44,644 bases of DNA from a virus (taxonomy: Duplodnaviria > Heunggongvirae > Uroviricota > Caudoviricetes). The translations under genes and the position numbers were made by a program. The stretch covers positions 1 through 44,644 of the IMG/VR virus record IMGVR_UViG_2563366806_000004. One strand, given 5' to 3'. The notes beneath the pieces are model-generated. The model was not told the DNA's origin. It saw only the letters and a list, made by a program, of their open reading frames with translations, and made no database searches. Shown here piece by piece: positions 1,346-22,050 of the stretch (position 1 is its first letter; the number at the start of each line of letters is the position of its first letter).

Positions 1346-1425
1346 GTTGTCATTATAAAAAAGCATTGCTTATCAATTTGTTGCAACGAACAGGTCACTA
1401 TCAGTCAAAATAAAATCATTATTTG
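1346..1425. promoter_or_regulatory. Lambda P' arm with arm-type Int binding sites
   Basis: Sequence GTTGTCATTATAAAAAAGCATTGCTTATCAATTTGTTGCAACGAACAGGTCACTATCAGTCAAAATAAAATCATTATTTG recognised as the lambda P' arm, including tandem arm-type sites. Confidence 0.7.
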
Positions 1426-2489
1426 ATTTCAATTTTGTCCCACTCCCTGCCTCTGTCATCACGATACTGTGATGCCATGGTGTCCGACTTATGCCCGAGA
1501 AGATGTTGAGCAAACTTATCGCTTATCTGCTTCTCATAGAGTCTTGCAGACAAACTGCGCAACTCGTGAAAGGTAGGCGGATCCCCTTCGAAGGAAAGAC
1601 CTGATGCTTTTCGTGCGCGCATAAAATACCTTGATACTGTGCCGGATGAAAGCGGTTCACGACGAGTAGATGCAATTATGGTTTCTCCGCCAAGAATCTC
1701 TTTGCATTTATCAAGTGTTTCCTTCATTGATATTCCGAGAGCATCAACATGCAATGCTGTTGGGATGGCAATTTTTACGCCTGTTTTGCTTTGCTCGACA
1801 TAAAGATATCCATCTACGATATCAGACCACTTCATTTCGCATAAATCACCAACTCGTTGCCCGGTAACAACAGCCAGTTCCATTGCAAGTCTGAGCCAAC
1901 ATGGTGATGATTCTGCTGCTTGATAAATTTTCAGGTATTCGTCAGCCGTAAGTCTTGATCTCCTTACCTCTGATTTTGCTGCGCGAGTGGCAGCGACAGG
2001 GTTTGTTGTTATATGGCCTTCAGCTATTGCCTCTCGGAATGCATCGCTCAGTGTTGATCTGATTAACTTGGCTGATGCCGCCTTGCCCTCGTCTATGTAT
2101 CCATTGAGCATTGCCGCAATTTCTTTTGTGGTGATGTCTTCAAGTGGAGCATCAGGCAGCCCCCTCCTTATTGCTTTAATTTTGCTCATGTAATTTATGA
2201 GTGTCTTCTGCTTGATTCCTCTGCTGGCGAGGATTTTTTCGTAGCGATCAAGCCATGAATGTAACGTAACGGAATTATCACTGTTGATTCTCGCTGTCAG
2301 AGGCTTGTGTTTGTGTCCTGAAAATAACTCAATGTTGGCCTGTATAGCTTCAGTGATTGCGATTCGCCTGTCTCGGCCTAATCCAAACTCTTTACCCGTC
2401 CTTGGGTCCCTGTAGCAGTAATATCCATTGTTTCTTATATAAAGGTTAGGGGGTAAATCCCGGCGCTCATGACTTCGCCTTCTTCCCAT
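1419..2489 (-). CDS. int: Tyrosine integrase, lambda Int
   Basis: 356-aa ORF starting MGRRRSHERRDLPPNLYIRNNGYY, recognised as lambda Int; directly adjacent to attL. Confidence 0.95.
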   Translation of the reverse strand: MGRRRSHERRDLPPNLYIRNNGYYCYRDPRTGKEFGLGRDRRIAITEAIQANIELFSGHKHKPLTARINSDNSVTLHSWLDRYEKILASRGIKQKTLINYMSKIKAIRRGLPDAPLEDITTKEIAAMLNGYIDEGKAASAKLIRSTLSDAFREAIAEGHITTNPVAATRAAKSEVRRSRLTADEYLKIYQAAESSPCWLRLAMELAVVTGQRVGDLCEMKWSDIVDGYLYVEQSKTGVKIAIPTALHVDALGISMKETLDKCKEILGGETIIASTRREPLSSGTVSRYFMRARKASGLSFEGDPPTFHELRSLSARLYEKQISDKFAQHLLGHKSDTMASQYRDDRGREWDKIEIK

Positions 2490-3391: not shown

Positions 3392-4191
3392 TACTTCGCC
3401 TCCAGCGGAGGTTCTGGTAGCGGCATCCAGTGAGTTGCTTGCTCAATACCATTACCCGGCTTAATCATTGCATCTCCGCGCCGAAAGGTGCTTCCGGTAT
3501 AGCGTGCGGAGCATATTAGCGGTTCAACCAGAGAGCTATCGAAATTCACCGAAATAAGCACGTTCTGGCCCTTTTCAGGCATTCGCTCACTACAGCTTAT
3601 CCAACCATCCGGAGTTAACGGAGAGTTGCCACCCTGAACAGTAGGCATATCCGGACCTTTGCGAATCGCCCTGGCAAGATCGATTTGGTCGTCGTACAAC
3701 CAGTCACCTGTTTGCGGATGATTGGCTTCTGCCAATTGTGCAGCCCATTCAAGGCCGTCTTTGTGACCTTGCAGATAGTCCAGCGGTAACTCATCACTAT
3801 TACTTACAGGTTCGGCCTGAAGCATGGCGGCGCGATAGGCGTTCCAGCCGACAGCTTTTCCGTGTTCAAACGCGCTGTCAAAGTCATCATCAATTTCCAT
3901 CGCAGCGGGCACAGATACCGGCGCTGGCGGGGAGGCGTAAAGCGGCGTTACTTCTCGCAGCGGGTCGGCATAAGCATTGCCACTATCGAAGCTGACGTTG
4001 TTTTTTGCCCCGCCTCCTGACAGCAACCACGCCACCGGCTCCGCTTCGAGCGATGCCAGTGCGATACGCGCATTATTAATCAGGAGGCTATCAGCAGGAG
4101 ATAAAACAACATGAGCGTTTCCCTCCGCATCAATTTCAGAATTCGTAATTTTTCTGAACAGCTTTGCCAGTTCTCTGGTAATAGTGCTCAT
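3391..4191 (-). CDS. DUF551-like prophage protein
   Basis: 266-aa ORF; C-terminal region DGWISCSERMPEKGQNVLISV...THWMPLPEPP resembles the DUF551 domain common in enterobacterial prophages. Confidence 0.55.
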   Translation of the reverse strand: MSTITRELAKLFRKITNSEIDAEGNAHVVLSPADSLLINNARIALASLEAEPVAWLLSGGGAKNNVSFDSGNAYADPLREVTPLYASPPAPVSVPAAMEIDDDFDSAFEHGKAVGWNAYRAAMLQAEPVSNSDELPLDYLQGHKDGLEWAAQLAEANHPQTGDWLYDDQIDLARAIRKGPDMPTVQGGNSPLTPDGWISCSERMPEKGQNVLISVNFDSSLVEPLICSARYTGSTFRRGDAMIKPGNGIEQATHWMPLPEPPLEAK

Positions 4192-4466
4192 GGGCGAATC
4201 TCCGTCCTGCCACCAAGTAAGCGGATTGCCACTCGTTCCCGGAAGGTAAGCGGTCGATGGTGTCCGCGGGCATTAACAATTTCAGGCTTTCCATTAGGCG
4301 GATAATTGACTCTGACCGATTGACCATCTAGCGCGTGAGAAGCCTCGAGTAGTGCTGACTTTAAGTGCGCAGGGCACTCTTTCTGCACCCGCTCGCCGTC
4401 TGAAATGACACCTGCAATCCCCTGAAGCATGCTGGCTAAATTGCTGAGATAATTTTTCACATTCAC
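4188..4466 (-). CDS. Hypothetical protein
   Basis: 92-aa ORF, start/stop overlap with neighbours in a tightly packed leftward operon. Confidence 0.45.
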   Translation of the reverse strand: MNVKNYLSNLASMLQGIAGVISDGERVQKECPAHLKSALLEASHALDGQSVRVNYPPNGKPEIVNARGHHRPLTFRERVAIRLLGGRTEIRP

Positions 4467-6118: not shown

Positions 6119-6598
6119 TTAAATTGCGTGAATAGCGTGACGAGGGAAGGGGAGAGTTACTGGCTCCTCGTCTGGGTAGATAGGTTTGTTATGTTTGTGC
6201 CACTCGACATGACATGACTTGCAGAGCCACATCACATCGGTTGGTTTACTGTAGTCGCAGTGGTGCGCCTGTGGTTTACATTCTGATCCGCAGCACTCAC
6301 ATTGTGGTGGTCGGATTAGCTTACCGTCGCGCAAAAAATTACCCACAATGATGTGGGCTTTTCTTTTCCATGGGTTGCTCTGAATGAACCGATTTTTGGC
6401 TGCGTTACACCGTTCTCTTCCGCGTTCCGATGATTGATATTCTCTCCTTGCTGATACTCGATGTGGCAATCCAGCGCGTTCTTTGTCGTATTCAGCCAGG
6501 CAAGCCCGGCAAGCGGCAGTTAATCCATCTCTGGATGCTCTTCTGATTTGAAAGTCCCTTTCTTCCTTCTGTTGATGGCATCTTGAGCAGATTTTCAT
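6119..6598 (-). CDS. HNH-motif endonuclease-like protein
   Basis: 159-aa ORF with Cys-rich N-terminus and C-terminal HHCDYSKPTDVMWLCKSCHVEWH HNH-type motif. Confidence 0.55.
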   Translation of the reverse strand: MKICSRCHQQKEERDFQIRRASRDGLTAACRACLAEYDKERAGLPHRVSARREYQSSERGRERCNAAKNRFIQSNPWKRKAHIIVGNFLRDGKLIRPPQCECCGSECKPQAHHCDYSKPTDVMWLCKSCHVEWHKHNKPIYPDEEPVTLPFPRHAIHAI

Positions 6599-6607
6599 AT
6601 TCAGCTC

Positions 6608-7081
6608 CTAGAACGGAATATCCGAATCGTCGAAGTTCATAGGTGGTTCGCTGTGATCCCCCTGCTGCTGAGGTTGCTGTCTTTGTTGCTGACCGCTATT
6701 TCGCTGAGGAGAAGACTGTTCATTGCCTCCTTGCTTGCCACCAAGCATTTGCATGGTTCCACCAACGCCCACGATGACTTCGGTAGTGAACCGATCCTGT
6801 CCGCTTTGATCCTGCCATTTTCTTGTCCGCAATTTGCCTTCAAGATAAACCTCAGAGCCTTTTCGCAGATATTCGCTGGCAATTTCTGCCAGTTTCCCGC
6901 TCATTACCACGCGGTGCCACTCCGTCTGCTCCTTTTGCTCTCCAGTTTGCTTATCACGCCATTGTTCTGACGTAGCAACTGTAAGGTTTGCAAATGCCGT
7001 TCCTGATGGTGAATATCTGATTTCTGGATCATGCCCAAGGCGACCAATAATGATCACCTTATTTACGCCTCTGCTTGCCAT
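6608..7081 (-). CDS. ssb: Single-stranded DNA-binding protein
   Basis: 157-aa [26 protein letters not shown]...TEWHRVV...DIPF; closely resembles E. coli SSB including the acidic C-terminal tail. Confidence 0.9.
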
Positions 7082-7789
7082 TTATGCCGCCTGTTTTAGT
7101 TCGTTAACTCTGATGTTCATTACCTGAACGCATTTAGCCTGCGCCTCCTCGTTGCCAGCCATTAATTGCCAGTCACGCTGATAACGCTCGATGAGTTTTT
7201 TCTTGTCAGTTTCTGTTGACGCATAATCGCTGAAGTCTTTCAGGATTTGTTCGCAGTCAACCGATGGAGATTTCTGGTTGATATTTTCTGGTGATGGTTT
7301 GTTATCTGATGCTGGGATTGCCCATCCCGGAAGCGATGGAGGGAGCCAGTAAAATCCTGTTCCATCTTTCAGTTTTGCCCTGTGCCATCCCTGCTTTTTA
7401 TCGAGAGATGTTTGTGCGAAACCTTCCTCAAGGTTATACAGATACCGACCGATTCCCCACTGAACGGCAGCGCGCTTCATTGCACCGGAACGACCACCTT
7501 TGACGGCTTCTACCTGCGTGTTTTCAGCAGCATCCCATTTGGTTACCCATTCGGAATCAATCTTGATTGATATGCCGCATTCAACTCCGCCGTTGTTGGG
7601 AATATCGCGGTATTCATTGCGCCATCCTGCTTTGCCGCAAACATCGTCCAGGCGTTTCATGATTGCCCGGTTCGTGACATAAGCCAGCACCATAGCCCAC
7701 ACCTTGCCATCGCGTGTTTTACCGCTTTGCTGTATTCGCCATTCGATATCTTCAGGGCTGAATGGCTCATCGAATTTATTCAAATCCAT
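7082..7789 (-). CDS. Rad52/Sak-like single-strand annealing protein
   Basis: 235-aa ORF; region GGVECGISIKIDSEWVTKWDAAE...GAMKRAAVQWGIGRYLY resembles Rad52-family annealing proteins; occupies the position of lambda bet. Confidence 0.55.
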   Translation of the reverse strand: MDLNKFDEPFSPEDIEWRIQQSGKTRDGKVWAMVLAYVTNRAIMKRLDDVCGKAGWRNEYRDIPNNGGVECGISIKIDSEWVTKWDAAENTQVEAVKGGRSGAMKRAAVQWGIGRYLYNLEEGFAQTSLDKKQGWHRAKLKDGTGFYWLPPSLPGWAIPASDNKPSPENINQKSPSVDCEQILKDFSDYASTETDKKKLIERYQRDWQLMAGNEEAQAKCVQVMNIRVNELKQAA

Positions 7790-9857: not shown

Positions 9858-9898
9858 TCTGTTGTTTATGCCAAAAATAAAGGCCGACTATGCGGCCT
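9858..9898. repeat. Direct repeat copy 1 (~40 bp, contains terminator hairpin)
   Basis: TCTGTTGTTTATGCCAAAAATAAAGGCCGACTATGCGGCCT, repeated with two differences at 10401..10439. Confidence 0.8.
9871..9898 (-). terminator. Intrinsic terminator after the 156-aa gene
   Basis: Stem AGGCCG/CGGCCT with loop ACTATG, followed on the minus strand by TTATTTTTGG. Confidence 0.55.
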
Positions 9899-10367
9899 AG
9901 TAGAATACCCAATTTTCTGTTTCTTGGTTGTGTCCAAAGTTATATTCAATATCTGGTGTTGATGTATCAATATTCTTCATCCCATCAACAAGAGTTGATA
10001 CAACAGCCAAATCTTGTTTGATTCTCATCAAATGGTATTTCTTCCGGCGCAATAAACTTTCAATGGCAAGTTTCTTCGTCGGGAACGCAAAAGATCTTTC
10101 TGCATTTTTTGCTACTTTCTTAATTGCATATCTATTTCTCCTTTGTTTCCATTCCTGTAACCACTGATTTGGTGCTGGTTTAAAATTAACAATCCAATGC
10201 GCAGGAACCAACCATGCATAATGCTCTGTCTGATGAAAAGCTATATATTGAAGTGCGAATATTTTGATTCCATCTTCTTCAACTGTCGCTTGGAATCTCC
10301 AGAAAACAGGCATTCCATCATGTTCAGTTTCTGATTCAGGAAAAGGTACGCTCCATGATTTTGTCAT
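9897..10367 (-). CDS. Hypothetical protein encoded by an AT-rich cassette
   Basis: 156-aa ORF with AT-rich codon usage unlike neighbours; own leader TTATTTGAGGTGAGATATG and own terminator; no recognisable motif. Confidence 0.55.
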   Translation of the reverse strand: MTKSWSVPFPESETEHDGMPVFWRFQATVEEDGIKIFALQYIAFHQTEHYAWLVPAHWIVNFKPAPNQWLQEWKQRRNRYAIKKVAKNAERSFAFPTKKLAIESLLRRKKYHLMRIKQDLAVVSTLVDGMKNIDTSTPDIEYNFGHNQETENWVFY

Positions 10368-10400
10368 ATCTCACCTCAAATAATTCAGTGCAGTGTTTAT

Positions 10401-10439
10401 TCTGTTGTTTATGCCAAAAGAAGGCCGACTATGCGGCCT
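10401..10439. repeat. Direct repeat copy 2 (contains terminator hairpin)
   Basis: TCTGTTGTTTATGCCAAAAGAAGGCCGACTATGCGGCCT. Confidence 0.8.
10412..10439 (-). terminator. Intrinsic terminator after the membrane-protein gene
   Basis: Same AGGCCG-actatg-CGGCCT hairpin as at 9881..9898, followed on the minus strand by a T-rich tract. Confidence 0.55.
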
Positions 10440-10443
10440 GAAA

Positions 10444-10893
10444 TTACTTAACCAATGATGCTGCATATTCGATAAGGTAAAGATTTGGGGTCAGCCAAAT
10501 TTTTAACCAAGTCATATTGGTTACTACACCAATAATAAAAATCCCCCACAGAGTCAAAACTACAACCAATGGCATGATAAGAAGATTAATATCACCTTTG
10601 CTATCCCAAACCATTGTCGGCCTGTATTTGGGATTTCCTTTCTCCCATGAATATCCTTCATCACCGATTTTACCTGTCTCAACTCTTTGGCACTGCTTCT
10701 TCATAAACCAGAAAACCAGTGGGATTGTTAGAATGGCCATTAATGTTTTAATCAGACTGTCAACCATATTCCATAGCAGCAACTGATGAACAACATCAGG
10801 AATCTGTGCCTGGCTAAATGAAACAGCCGCGTCTATTCCATTACTGGCTTTTTGCAGTAGTTCTACGAGAATCTTGTTTGCTTGTTCTTCCAT
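10444..10893 (-). CDS. Two-pass membrane protein encoded by an AT-rich cassette (possible superinfection-exclusion or abortive-infection function)
   Basis: 149-aa ORF; two hydrophobic helices (LIKTLMAILTIPLVFWFM and INLLIMPLVVVLTLWGIFIIGVV); leader identical to that of the 156-aa gene; position left of N is where lambda and P22 carry sieB. Confidence 0.55.
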   Translation of the reverse strand: MEEQANKILVELLQKASNGIDAAVSFSQAQIPDVVHQLLLWNMVDSLIKTLMAILTIPLVFWFMKKQCQRVETGKIGDEGYSWEKGNPKYRPTMVWDSKGDINLLIMPLVVVLTLWGIFIIGVVTNMTWLKIWLTPNLYLIEYAASLVK

Positions 10894-10947
10894 ATCTCAC
10901 CTCAAATAAGTGGTTTGCTGCGAAAGTAAATACGCTTAAGTTACCTG

Positions 10948-11085
10948 TTATTTATCCCACCAAGTTCCGTATCTATCTATCCAGTTACACCAATCATCGA
11001 CACTCCATTTTGTTGTGTCGCATTTTGGCAACTGGCATGAATATCTACCTTCTTTGTAAAGTCGGCGTTTGACTTTCTTGAGCAT
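10948..11085 (-). CDS. Small Cys-containing hypothetical protein
   Basis: 45-aa ORF MLKKVKRRLYKEGRYSCQLPKCDTTKWSVDDWCNWIDRYGTWWDK directly after the N stop codon with GAGGTGAG Shine-Dalgarno; below the ORF-track length cut-off. Confidence 0.4.
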   Translation of the reverse strand: MLKKVKRRLYKEGRYSCQLPKCDTTKWSVDDWCNWIDRYGTWWDK

Positions 11086-11093
11086 GGCTCACC

Positions 11094-11426
11094 TCAATCG
11101 TAATAAGCTGGAATTGATTTTCCGCGTTGCTTCTGGCGGCCTGAGCAGGTCAACCCCATTTCACTGCGTGGCTTGCTGTACCATGTGCGCTGATTCTTGC
11201 GCTCAATACGCTGCAGGTTGCTTTCAATCTGTTCGTGGTATTCAGCCAGCACCGTAAGGTCTATCGGATTCAGTGCGCTTTCTACTCGTGATTTCGGTTT
11301 GCGATTCAGCGAGAGAATAGGGCGGTTAACTGGTTTTGCGCTTACCCCAACCAACAGGGGATTTGCTGCTTTCCATTGAACCTGTTTCTCTGCGCGACGT
11401 TCGCGGCGGCGTGTTTGTGCATCCAT
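11094..11426 (-). CDS. N: Antitermination protein N
   Basis: 110-aa ORF MDAQTRRRERRAEKQVQWKAANPLLVGVSAKPVNRPILSL, recognised as lambda N; nutL lies upstream. Confidence 0.9.
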   Translation of the reverse strand: MDAQTRRRERRAEKQVQWKAANPLLVGVSAKPVNRPILSLNRKPKSRVESALNPIDLTVLAEYHEQIESNLQRIERKNQRTWYSKPRSEMGLTCSGRQKQRGKSIPAYYD

Positions 11427-11694
11427 CTGGATTCTCCTGTCAGTTAGCTTTGGTGGTGTGGTGGCTGGTAGTCTAGCTCCAGCTTGTTGAGTCTCATTCG
11501 GAGGGGTATAACCGGCACCCCAGCGATTTTTCCATGCGACAACGTGCGCGTTATGGCGGCCTTATCGCCCGCGGCTCCCCATCTCGTCCACGCTATTGCT
11601 AGCGTTGGGAGCGCTTCACCGCTCAACAGTAGGTAAGCACTTGCCAGTGACTAGCTGGCTTCACCACACCCCAAAGCCTTCTGCTTTGAATGCT

Positions 11695-11725
11695 GCCCTT
11701 CTTCAGGGCTAAATTTTTAAGAGCC
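11695..11725 (-). promoter_or_regulatory. nutL: nutL (boxB hairpin GCCCTGAAGAAGGGC plus boxA-like GCTCTTA)
   Basis: Reverse complement of 11691..11724 reads GCTCTTAAAAATTTAGCCCTGAAGAAGGGCAGCA, matching lambda nutL. Confidence 0.8.
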
Positions 11726-11764
11726 TCACCTTCATGGTGGTCAGTGCGTCCTGTTGATGGCTAG

Positions 11765-11828
11765 ATAATCACAAATTGTGTTCGTGCTGTCAACACGAAA
11801 TGTGATTGTTTTTATCACAACACGTGTT
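11765..11828 (-). promoter_or_regulatory. pL promoter with three operator sites (oL)
   Basis: Three 15-bp sites of form ATCACA-N3-YGTGTT at 11768..11782, 11792..11806, 11814..11828; minus-strand -35 TTGACA (11793..11788) and -10 GATTAT (11770..11765), 17-nt spacer. Confidence 0.65.
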
Positions 11829-11865: not shown

Positions 11866-11889
11866 AACAAAAAACCCGCCGAAGCGGGT
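11866..11889 (-). terminator. Intrinsic terminator after the repressor gene
   Basis: Stem ACCCGC/GCGGGT with loop CGAA, followed on the minus strand by TTTTTTGTTG. Confidence 0.6.
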
Positions 11890-11914
11890 TTGATGTTTTT
11901 AAGTGGCGGGTATA

Positions 11915-12556
11915 TCAGGAGAATTTCATCATCATCTGCACTGCTACGCCGATTATCTTGCAGTTGCCGTCGATTGGGATCAACGGATAGGCAGGGTTAA
12001 GCCCTTTCAGGTATTTGTTACCGCCATCAATGATTAGCTTCTTGAACGTGGCTTCATTAGCATCTGTCAGCTTCGCAACTACCAGGCTTCCATTAACGGC
12101 TTCCTTTCCAGTGTCGAACAGAACCAGCATACCCTCAGGAACGCTAAGGCCGGTAGGAGCTGTCATTGAGTCGCCCTGAACCCTGAGCCAGAAGGCGTCA
12201 CCGACAACGTGACAATCTGATTCATACCACTCATCCACTGCCTGAGGGTTGTACGGCTCTACGGCCTCACTCCATGCACCTGCGCTAACCCAGCTAATCA
12301 ACGGAAACTTTTCCCCTGGCTTGTATTGTCCCTGATAGTTGTCGCCAAAAAGCAGTTCTGCCGGAGCGACGCCCAAAGCTTTAGCTATTACCTCTGCGTC
12401 ATCAACACTAACGCTTCTGGTTCCTGATTCATAGTTGCCGATCCGAGATTGTGAAGCCCAGCCGCAAAGCTCCGCCAGAGCCTTCTGTGAAAGCCCTTTA
12501 TCTTCCCGTAATCGCTTGATACGCGCGGCGATAGTTTCTGTTCTGTTCATGCGCAT
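11915..12556 (-). CDS. cI: CI-like prophage repressor (XRE-type HTH plus S24 LexA-like autopeptidase domain)
   Basis: 213-aa ORF; N-terminal HTH (LSQKALAELCGWASQSRIGNYESG); Ala-Gly cleavage site (SAGAW); GDSM serine motif and downstream Lys; flanked by oL and oR; not lambda cI. Confidence 0.8.
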   Translation of the reverse strand: MRMNRTETIAARIKRLREDKGLSQKALAELCGWASQSRIGNYESGTRSVSVDDAEVIAKALGVAPAELLFGDNYQGQYKPGEKFPLISWVSAGAWSEAVEPYNPQAVDEWYESDCHVVGDAFWLRVQGDSMTAPTGLSVPEGMLVLFDTGKEAVNGSLVVAKLTDANEATFKKLIIDGGNKYLKGLNPAYPLIPIDGNCKIIGVAVQMMMKFS

Positions 12557-13308: not shown

Positions 13309-13953
13309 ATGACATACGAAAATGACAAATTCCAGGTTCTGAAGAGCATGAAGGTGCCAGATGATTTTAAATCAAATGGCTTTGTTTATGTGCTTTCTAA
13401 TGAGTGCATGCCAGGAATTTATAAGATTGGGATGACTAAGCATTCACCAGAAGTTAGGGCTAAAGAAATTTCAGCCTCTACTGGCGTTCCTAAGCCATTT
13501 AAGGTGATAGCAGCCTTTCATTCAAATAATCCCGCATCAGATGAAAAACTCATTCATAAAGCCTTTGCAAAAGAGAGGCTTAGTGATAATCGAGAGTTTT
13601 TCAAGCTTGAAGATAATGAGCTTTCTGAATCTCTAAATGAAATAAGGGCGCTGGTTGGCCCTGAAAGAAATGGCGAGACGGCAGAATACGCAATTTACGA
13701 CTCATTCATTTCTTTTCGCCATGAAAATGAGCTTGATCTTAATGAGGAGCTTATAGAGCAAGGTCTGGGTAGTGTAGTTGGTCATCTTCCTGCGGTGAAA
13801 AATTTCCTTATTCGCGCCGGAATTGATTACGCGAAGCAACTGATAAGCAAATATAACTCATCGATAGTTATTAATACAGATGGCAGTGTGGTGATGGTTA
13901 AGTCTCTTGAAGCCCAATGCTTTGATGCGGAGGTTGGAAATGAGCCTGGCTGA
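13309..13953 (+). CDS. T5orf172 / GIY-YIG-like domain protein (accessory gene between cII and O)
   Basis: 214-aa ORF, RBS CAGGAG; N-terminal NGFVYVLSNECMPGIYKIGMTKHSPEVRAKEIS...PFKVIAAFHSNN...REFFKL resembles the T5orf172 (GIY-YIG-like) domain; AT-rich; 3' end overlaps O start by 14 nt. Confidence 0.6.
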   Translation: MTYENDKFQVLKSMKVPDDFKSNGFVYVLSNECMPGIYKIGMTKHSPEVRAKEISASTGVPKPFKVIAAFHSNNPASDEKLIHKAFAKERLSDNREFFKLEDNELSESLNEIRALVGPERNGETAEYAIYDSFISFRHENELDLNEELIEQGLGSVVGHLPAVKNFLIRAGIDYAKQLISKYNSSIVINTDGSVVMVKSLEAQCFDAEVGNEPG

Positions 13954-20714: not shown

Positions 20715-20829
20715 TTCAGGCTCACGGGAATCATCCGCTACGTGCTTTGTTGATAAATCCAGCCCGTGAAGCCTGACCCTTTTCAAACACACACACACAG
20801 CGCCATCCGAAAAATCGGAGGTGAGGCCT

Positions 20830-21153
20830 ATGAAAATGCCATACAAACAAGATTTCATCGCTGCGCTACTTGCCGCCAAGGAGCAGGGTATTGGTGCAAT
20901 GCTGGCTTTTATCATGGCGTATCTGCGTGGTCGCTATAACGGCGGCGCGGTAACAAAAACGCTAATTGATGCGCTGATGTGCGCGATGATTGCCTGGTTC
21001 GTTCGTGACCTTCTGGACTTTATCGGCCTGAGCAGCAACCTCGCCTACATAGCCAGCGTCTTTATTGGATACATCGGCACCGATTCGATCGGCAATCTTA
21101 TTAAAAAACTTGCAGCAAAAAAGGCGGGAGTTGACGATGCAAACCAGTCCTGA
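20830..21153 (+). CDS. S: Holin S (lambda class I, dual-start MKM motif)
   Basis: 107 aa from ATG 20830; [27 protein letters not shown]... resembles lambda S. Confidence 0.9.
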
Positions 21154-21586
21154 CGGAATTGCTCTGATAAAAAAATTTGAAGGTTGTCGGCTGACTGCTT
21201 ACCCCGACCCCGGAACGGGAGATGCGCCGTGGACCATCGGCTATGGCTGGACCCATCCGGTTGACGGAAAGCCAGTAAAGCGCGGTATGACTATCGACCA
21301 GCAAACCGCTGACAGGCTTCTGAAAACAGGGCTTGTTGGTTATGAGAATGACGTGCTGAAAGTTGTCAGGGTGAAGCTGACACAAGGCCAGTTCGACGCA
21401 CTGGTGTCGTTCGCTTACAACGTTGGGTCGCGTGCTCTTTCCACATCTACACTGCTGAAAAAGCTGAATGCTGGCGATATAAAAGGCGCGGCAGATGAAT
21501 TTCTGCGCTGGAATAAATCAGGCGGAAAGGTGATGCCGGGGCTCACGAATCGCCGCAAGGCAGAGCGAGCTCTGTTCCTGTCATGA
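21137..21586 (+). CDS. Endolysin, T4/P22-type lysozyme (glycoside hydrolase family 24)
   Basis: 149 aa from ATG 21137 overlapping the S stop; [33 protein letters not shown] and C-terminal [12 protein letters not shown] resemble P22 gp19 lysozyme, not lambda R. Confidence 0.85.
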
Positions 21587-22050
21587 TTAGCGCACTGGTT
21601 AAGCGTTACTGGCTGCAGTTGCTGGTGCTGGCGTTAATCGGCGCACTGGCTTTCTTCGTGAACCACTACCGCGACAACGCCATCACTTACAGAGACCAGC
21701 GCGATAAGGCCACTGAGAAACTCCTCCTGGCGACCGCCACCATTAAAGACATGCAGACCCGCCAGCGTGATGTCGCTGCACTGGATGCCAAATACACCGG
21801 AGAACTGGCTGATGCGAAAGAAACCATTGAGCGTCTGCATAGCGATGTCATTGCTGGCCGTAAGCGGCTGCAAGTCGCCGCCACCTGTGCAAAGTCAACG
21901 ACCGGAGCCAGCAGCATGGGCGATGGAGAAAGCCCAAGACTTACAGCAGATGCTGAACTCAATTATTACCGTCTACGAAGTGGAATCGACAAGATAACCG
22001 CGCAGGTTAACTACCTGCAGGAATACATCAGGACGCAATGCCTGAAATAA
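21583..22050 (+). CDS. Rz: i-spanin Rz
   Basis: 155-aa ORF; N-terminal transmembrane helix ([16 protein letters not shown]) and coiled-coil periplasmic domain; follows endolysin. Confidence 0.8.
21812..21997 (+). CDS. Rz1: o-spanin Rz1 (lipoprotein embedded in Rz in the +1 frame)
   Basis: 61 aa from ATG 21812: [20 protein letters not shown] lipobox followed by proline-rich segment; entirely within Rz. Confidence 0.7.

Follow-up and report, generated by a model that had tools for sequence, protein, structure and literature searches.

Small membrane proteins are among the least understood phage genes, and the described systems closest to the locus analyzed here are phage exclusion proteins. 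SieB is expressed from its own promoter, and the PL transcript, in the work of Ranade and Poteete (1993), reportedly yields an antisense RNA, sas, directed against sieB. P22 sieA lies in the immI region and is expressed by the prophage, not from the PL operon. T4 imm is an early gene, and HK97 gene 15 is a moron located in the virion module. T4 Imm, a small inner-membrane protein whose N terminus is periplasmic, binds the tape-measure protein, and HK97 gp15 has been proposed to act like it (bioRxiv 10.64898/2026.03.06.709160); P22 SieA is an inner-membrane injection blocker with three predicted transmembrane (TM) segments (PMC10883804). Here we analyze a gene for a small inner-membrane protein in the IMG/VR virus record IMGVR_UViG_2563366806_000004 (Caudoviricetes), positions 1 to 44,644, a stretch of 44,644 nucleotides (nt) that we call the window throughout. 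The gene occupies 10444..10893 on the minus strand, and the original prediction, made from the DNA letters, had proposed it as a candidate exclusion factor of the SieB kind. We find that it is a conserved member of a large family of mobile single-gene cassettes that is unrelated to SieB, and that a block to secondary genome entry, resembling the action of Imm and gp15, is a tentative but possible function.

The open reading frame (ORF) starts with an ATG at 10893 and ends with a stop codon at 10446-10444 on the minus strand, thus encoding 149 amino acids (aa), as originally predicted. The impression that the protein resembles nothing placeable is right in that no functional family matched, but the protein is a full-length member of phrog_3054, a family annotated as "unknown function" (E value 1e-62, residues 1-149 against profile positions 1-137 of 137). 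In the PHROG scan, 73 of the 73 diverse relatives match the same family, the other matches being to two sister PHROGs (one unannotated, one labeled "membrane protein") and to sporadic single-member families. Named homologues include gene 34 of Shigella phage Sf6, ECRS218_0047 of CUS-3, Phi92_gp220, a "TM helix-containing protein" of HF4s and the UniRef entry "Phage transmembrane protein." The HF4s and Shiga toxin (Stx) phage copies are 95-96% identical to the target, and an identical protein is already public as "hypothetical protein" or "Phage transmembrane protein"; both the sequence and its family are already catalogued, with no function assigned, and this copy is of a familiar kind, the small accessory membrane proteins encoded in lambdoid early operons. 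Close homologues form 398 clusters at 90% identity, an exhaustive HMMER search returned 1633 clusters at 50% identity (E<=1e-3) and a profile search 1788 clusters, while the family was found in 181 sequenced phages and near-identical full-length copies in 112 of 5426 complete Escherichia coli genomes (about 2%). Across 55 distinct close alleles, the ratio of nonsynonymous to synonymous substitution rates (dN/dS) is 0.23 overall. Given the 398 close clusters, the 1633 clusters at 50% identity and this ratio, the target is a real gene under purifying selection, beyond what chance would produce. Scans of the target protein against Pfam, NCBIfam and PADLOC gave no match, a Pfam scan of the 73 relatives gave only scattered chance matches to unrelated membrane families, and a profile search of PDB sequences gave only chance matches to G protein-coupled receptors (E>0.7). 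In line with the original prediction, the Pfam, PHROG, NCBIfam and PDB-sequence searches revealed no homology to housekeeping or virion proteins.

Kyte-Doolittle profiles computed with a 19-residue window show maxima of 1.87 (residues 46-64) and 2.69 (residues 106-124), confirming the two strongly hydrophobic helices noticed at first reading, which cover about residues 45-64 (TM helix 1, 10702..10761, minus strand like all segments of the gene) and 104-126 (TM helix 2, 10516..10584). The helices are flanked by a 44-aa acidic N-tail (residues 1-44, 10762..10893) and a 23-aa aromatic C-tail (residues 127-149, 10447..10515), and are separated by a loop (residues 65-103, 10585..10701) that starts with the basic cluster KKQCQR; this loop had been described as short and charged, and it is indeed charged (8 K/R and 6 D/E), but at 39 aa it is not especially short. 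The N-tail is an acidic amphipathic helix ending in the near-invariant motif F26..QIPDV.HQLL.W41. The C-tail carries an aromatic motif that is also almost invariant, WLKIW.APKLYLIEYAASLVK (WLKIW.APKLYLIEYA) family-wide or, with its alternatives, WLKIW.(A/T)P(K/N)LYLIEYAASLVK; family alignments show both tail motifs on either side of the two TM helices in the window protein, in which T135 and N137 replace the usual A and K. In alignments reaching ~30% identity, the TM helices and the loop vary freely, whereas the tails stay near-invariant. The loop, variable in sequence, measures 19-54 aa within the 73-member set, and in the wider family it can be as short as about 10 aa or as long as roughly 60-75 aa without any change in the tails, the long loops (60-75 aa) being highly charged and K/R/E-rich. 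In the 55 alleles, dN/dS is lowest in the two tails (N-tail 0.10, C-tail 0.075), rises to 0.15 in TM1 and 0.25 in the loop, and reaches about 1.1 in TM2, so that the strongest purifying selection falls on the tails. The TM2 value goes together with a low dS of 0.085; the near-neutral ratio could reflect diversifying selection on a specificity element, or merely relaxed constraint. Over the 73 members, the N-tail carries few K/R (density 0.05) and a net charge of -3.6, the loop opens with an average of 2.4 K/R in its first 8 residues, and the loop holds more K/R than both tails combined in 49 of 73 proteins (the reverse is true in 15 of 73). Following the positive-inside rule, since the loop holds more K/R, the loop is predicted to be cytoplasmic and the conserved tails to lie at the periplasmic face of the inner membrane (N-out/C-out), with the C-tail at the membrane interface. 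A cytoplasmic location also suits the long charged loops of some members.

The target lies in a lambda-like leftward early operon, in the order cI-like gene, terminator, PL, nutL, N, DUF5484 ORF, target and hairpin, in which the promoter and terminators were located by consensus scans. The cI-like repressor gene (11915..12556) is followed by a strong terminator (11872..11891, minus strand) and then by a PL-like promoter (11765..11793, minus strand; TTGACA-17-GATTAT, the second hexamer being preceded by TG), from which N, the DUF5484 ORF and the target would be transcribed. The operator region contains ACAA..TTGT-type sequence elements. Next comes nutL (11693..11727, minus strand), with a boxB, GCCCTGAAGAAGGGC, identical to that of lambda and a boxA one base different (GGCTCTTA in the window, CGCTCTTA in lambda). 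The antiterminator gene N (11094..11426, minus strand; Pfam N36, E value 1e-25) encodes a protein 93% identical to lambda N, and between it and the target lies a 45-aa Cys/Trp-rich ORF with Pfam DUF5484 (10948..11085, minus strand; E value 2.6e-12), the homologue of which is labeled in Sf6 as similar to T4 Orf55.4. The target had been described as next to N: it is downstream of N, but with this ORF in between, so that the description is approximate. Downstream of N, the scan of the window meets no terminator-like site until the hairpin that follows the target, and because no such site separates PL-nutL-N from the target, we infer that the gene belongs to the immediate-early PL-nutL-N transcript. 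Conversely, expression from a repressed prophage is not indicated here, because the terminator at 11891..11872 would block read-through after cI and thus insulate the target from the repressor transcript; consensus scanning and upstream comparison found no promoter for the target in the window.

A strong ribosome-binding site, GAGGTGA (10903..10897), stands 3 nt ahead of the ATG within a Shine-Dalgarno block, TTATTTGAGGTGAGAT (10894..10909, minus strand), and an identical block precedes the next two genes. With copies at 10365-10383, 10891-10909 and 11083-11097, three successive PL-operon genes have this block in common (TTGAGGTGAG..ATG). On the 3′ side of the stop codon, the hairpin AGGCCGCATAGTCGGCCT followed by TCTTTTGG (10439..10412) forms, with its T-rich tail and a conserved trailer, a terminator-like element (10401..10439, minus strand). 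The prediction of a ribosome-binding site and a terminator belonging to the gene itself is borne out in that both are present, but neither is private to it, and the hairpin is weak in the window (RNA folding free energy -9.7 kcal/mol, z -1.6). Most relatives carry a better T-run at the hairpin, TTTATTTTT, and the hairpin is kept in nearly all loci. The 41-nt hairpin-plus-tail is duplicated, at 9858-9898 after the next gene and at 10401-10439 after the target, and is a cassette boundary element. One repeat occurs at 9858, 10401 and 10944, with an equal spacing of 543 bp, the third copy being only 74% identical. The Shine-Dalgarno block and the hairpin are generic cassette boundaries, and they look like the recombination "boundary sequences" that allow single-gene cassette swaps. 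The Sf6 annotation places such a boundary sequence (bsq4) a short distance downstream of gene 34. The next cassette in the window (9897-10367, minus strand) is likewise flanked by these elements; its product, a 156-aa protein assigned to phrog_1636 (unknown function, E value 3e-112), is also found in phage Bas106, directly after a 54-aa hypothetical ORF.

We then compared the setting of the gene in 80 IMG/VR prophage loci, where its copies are 74-99% identical. In these loci it always lies on the N strand, downstream of N, with neighbors that vary, including at least four types of N and, in some loci only, ral, DUF5484 and an antisense sieB. Homology upstream of the ATG ends at 0-26 nt in most of 78 relatives, leaving the Shine-Dalgarno block as the only common element, and in phage HF4s the ATG of the target follows the stop codon of N after a gap of only 8 nt. 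Since upstream homology stops this close to the ATG, there is no room for a conserved promoter, and none was found when we looked for one in the relatives. The homologues of Sf6, CUS-3 and HF4s also lie in the PL operon downstream of N. The gene is absent from the closest sequenced phage, Bas106, which aligns over about half of the first 25 kb and is 99% identical there.

Outside the PL operon, a distant homologue lies antisense between capsid and head-tail genes in loci L010 (5001-5429) and L096 (4001-4429), within an E217-like myovirus virion module that is collinear with the one in the window. The L010 copy has a promoter-like site, TTGACG-16-TATTGT, and a GC hairpin with a T-run (consensus scan); the window copy has a terminator-like hairpin and no promoter. 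In P22-type virion modules (L097 and L098, both 4001-4453), homologues lie between those of gp4 and gp10 and overlap the stop codon of an unrelated 166-184-aa gene. Other members of the family are located between erf and ninG, in an island within the structural genes of a Citrobacter siphovirus, and in the early or middle part of virulent genomes (phi92-like, N4-like, Pseudomonas, Ralstonia and Vibrio phages), making at least five distinct genomic contexts. A metagenomic phage with a family member (L099) also carries an IS605 OrfB/TnpB (Cas12f-like) gene in its nin region (6483-7544). A comparison of neighbors in 12 contexts revealed no common partner gene. Because no neighbor is common to these varied contexts, the family is a single-gene, autonomous, mobile accessory cassette.

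The original prediction had compared the gene with sieB, and the comparison holds as far as position is concerned: the target is a small accessory membrane protein in the slot just downstream of N, the same neighborhood as sieB in lambda and P22-like phages, and the window itself contains neither sieB nor ral. Family membership and SieB-type expression both fail. An hhalign comparison of the family with the SieB profile gave a probability of 2%, and PF14163 was not matched at E<=1 by the target or by any of the 73 relatives, whereas the control proteins, lambda SieB and SPN9CC SieB, match PF14163 at 1e-29 and 7e-28. The architecture differs as well, SieB being a protein of 183-195 aa with hydrophobic segments near the N terminus and a mostly polar C-terminal half, while the 149-aa target has a TM hairpin between conserved tails. 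Moreover, sieB is antisense to PL (by annotation, in lambda, SPN9CC and 10 IMG/VR loci), whereas the target runs in the sense of PL without a conserved promoter; phage SPN9CC and about 10 of the 80 related prophages contain both genes. A tblastn match of lambda SieB within the downstream 156-aa ORF (E value 0.044) was rejected, being out of frame with that ORF. By these comparisons the target is unrelated to SieB, and a SieB-like factor that acts by abortive infection and is expressed from the prophage, as first proposed, is very unlikely; the terminator after cI, which would stop read-through, also speaks against it.

That the gene is a candidate exclusion factor is nevertheless a reasonable hypothesis by analogy with known systems, and we tentatively favor early superinfection exclusion at the genome-entry step, of the Imm/gp15 type, to which we give well under an even chance. 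In such a model, the protein would be made immediately after infection or induction, together with N; its basic loop would stay cytoplasmic, and at the periplasmic side of the inner membrane, where the two conserved tails would lie, it would act alone, possibly by obstructing the tape-measure or ejection proteins that a second phage inserts into the membrane. The mode of action would thus resemble that of T4 Imm or HK97 gp15 rather than SieB-type abortive infection, and the fast-evolving TM2 might serve as a specificity element. We chose this reading because entry blockers, among known phage proteins, match the target most closely in size and membrane location, in being encoded by a single gene, and in their early or moron position. 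In its mobile accessory behavior, and in forming in some phages an antisense moron flanked by a promoter-like site and a terminator, the family resembles known exclusion genes. A broader version of the model, in which the family is a very widespread and previously unrecognized class of inner-membrane proteins that temperate and virulent phages of Gamma- and Betaproteobacteria use to protect the infected cell at its envelope, with invariant periplasm-facing tails that grip a conserved host or membrane feature while TM2 sets the specificity against the membrane-inserting injection proteins of incoming phages, seems to us rather unlikely.

Several observations weigh against an entry block. The conserved parts of the protein hardly change between phages of Enterobacteria, Vibrio, Pseudomonas and Ralstonia, whose virions are of podovirus, siphovirus and myovirus type, and this invariance is more easily reconciled with a conserved host target than with a phage injection protein that diversifies rapidly. 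The high dN/dS of TM2 may be plain relaxed constraint on a membrane anchor. The topology is derived from the positive-inside rule only, and the promoter and terminator calls from consensus scans only. An AlphaFold2 model built from a 45-sequence alignment is mostly helical and of low confidence (predicted local distance difference test, pLDDT, 64.7; predicted template modeling score, pTM, 0.40), and Foldseek comparison of this model with viral structures retrieved uncharacterized relatives only. Finally, the Pfam, PHROG, NCBIfam and PADLOC searches detected no homology to any known exclusion or defense family, and a search of a paper library found no mention of the gene or its family, no functional study and no phenotype data.

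The invariance of the tails is the starting point of the main rival explanation, in which the gene encodes a host-takeover factor whose periplasm-facing tails bind a conserved host machine of the inner membrane or periplasm (the divisome, Tol/Ton, Sec/YidC, FtsH-HflKC, an envelope-stress sensor or a transporter would be candidates) and re-tune the envelope for lytic development, exclusion being at most a side effect. This explanation is possible, if doubtful. The tails remain near-invariant down to about 30% overall identity, across hosts and virion types, and are the segments under the strongest purifying selection; the gene occupies an immediate-early position beside other host-directed early functions (N, Kil and CIII, all carried by the window together with Q), and it is present in the early regions of virulent phages. 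However, the gene is dispensable, since near-identical phages lack it and its distribution among lambdoid phages is patchy, and the antisense moron with its promoter-like site suggests expression outside the lytic program, which would be odd for a takeover factor; no candidate host partner emerged from this analysis. The same patchy, accessory distribution, together with the occurrence in virulent phages and the early expression suggested by the anatomy of the transcription unit, would suit a counter-defense protein, made early to neutralize a membrane-associated defense of the host or of a resident prophage (of the Rex, SieB, Zorya or Kiwa type), in the way that ral provides antirestriction; in many relatives, the target and ral indeed share the N-proximal slot. 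We nonetheless consider counter-defense unlikely, given that membrane defense effectors are diverse, yet the tails are invariant, and that no component of a catalogued system was matched in PADLOC; that about 10 of 80 prophages carry the target and sieB in cis is neutral at best.

A role in lysis timing, as a holin, antiholin or lysis-inhibition factor, is the least probable of the explanations that we weighed, and we regard it as extremely unlikely. As a small phage membrane protein with two TM segments, the target resembles class II holins in size, but the window contains a complete lambda-type lysis cassette elsewhere (20821-22050), comprising a holin S gene (Phage_holin_3_1, 20821-21153), a lysozyme gene (21065-21586) and Rz (21583-22050), on account of which the identification of the target as the holin was rejected. 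The target also lies in an early and not a late operon, has no lysis gene beside it in the other contexts that we looked at, and matches no holin family in Pfam or PHROG, whether the target or the 73 relatives are considered. Holins typically have a highly charged C-terminal tail, whereas the C-tail of the target is hydrophobic and aromatic.

The remainder of the window shows that the prophage is a mosaic, because its virion module is E217-like while its early region is lambda/P22-like. The virion module (23957-44644) is neither lambda- nor P22-like. Its products include a Phage_portal_3 protein, a major capsid protein of PF09950, a sheath-type protein resembling DUF3383/E217_gp31, a tape-measure protein that carries an SLT lytic transglycosylase domain and a Baseplate_J protein, as in the structural region of an E217-like myovirus. 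A plus-strand ORF (13309-13953) located between the cII-like gene and the replication genes encodes a 214-aa T5orf172/MUG113 (GIY-YIG-like) protein, and Bas106 has an equally sized hypothetical ORF at the matching position. At the left side, a lambda-type integrase with an arm-binding domain (1419-2489, minus strand) adjoins a pectinesterase-like ORF (1-1284) that reaches the edge of the window; this ORF is probably a flanking host gene, and the left prophage end likely lies inside the first 1.4 kb.

The family is large, strongly constrained and present in temperate as well as virulent phages, yet no function has been assigned to it. Although nothing in these results would astonish a specialist, the size of the family, its conservation pattern and the ease of testing a single gene make it a worthwhile target, and its autonomy, its sharply defined motifs and its place in the first lambdoid transcript make it an experimentally tractable one. 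Should exclusion or host takeover prove true, the gene would define a new superinfection-exclusion or envelope-takeover family with a modular design of constant tails and a variable helix, which could matter for the host range of therapeutic phages in lysogens of E. coli, Salmonella and Shigella; should exclusion prove false, a recurrent "candidate Sie" annotation would be removed.

Compared with known systems, the best functional analogy is with T4 Imm and HK97 gp15, which are likewise small single-gene phage inner-membrane proteins. The target family spans both the early-operon position, as does Imm, and the moron position, as does gp15. Imm homologues are largely confined to T4-like phages, whereas the target family spans many phage types, and no sequence relationship to Imm or gp15 was detectable in Pfam, PHROG, NCBIfam or PADLOC; these scans, which stand for the profile search against Imm and other exclusion families suggested by the original prediction, matched no family except phrog_3054. 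P22 SieA, compared by description, differs in having three predicted TM segments where the target has two. Sf6 and CUS-3 annotate a shorter, 140-aa start, and the family alignments favor the 149-aa start, at which M1 is conserved. Taken together, Sf6 gp34 and the phrog_3054 proteins are true homologues of the target, with the same length, the same two-TM layout and the same tail motifs, and nothing substantive sets them apart from it.

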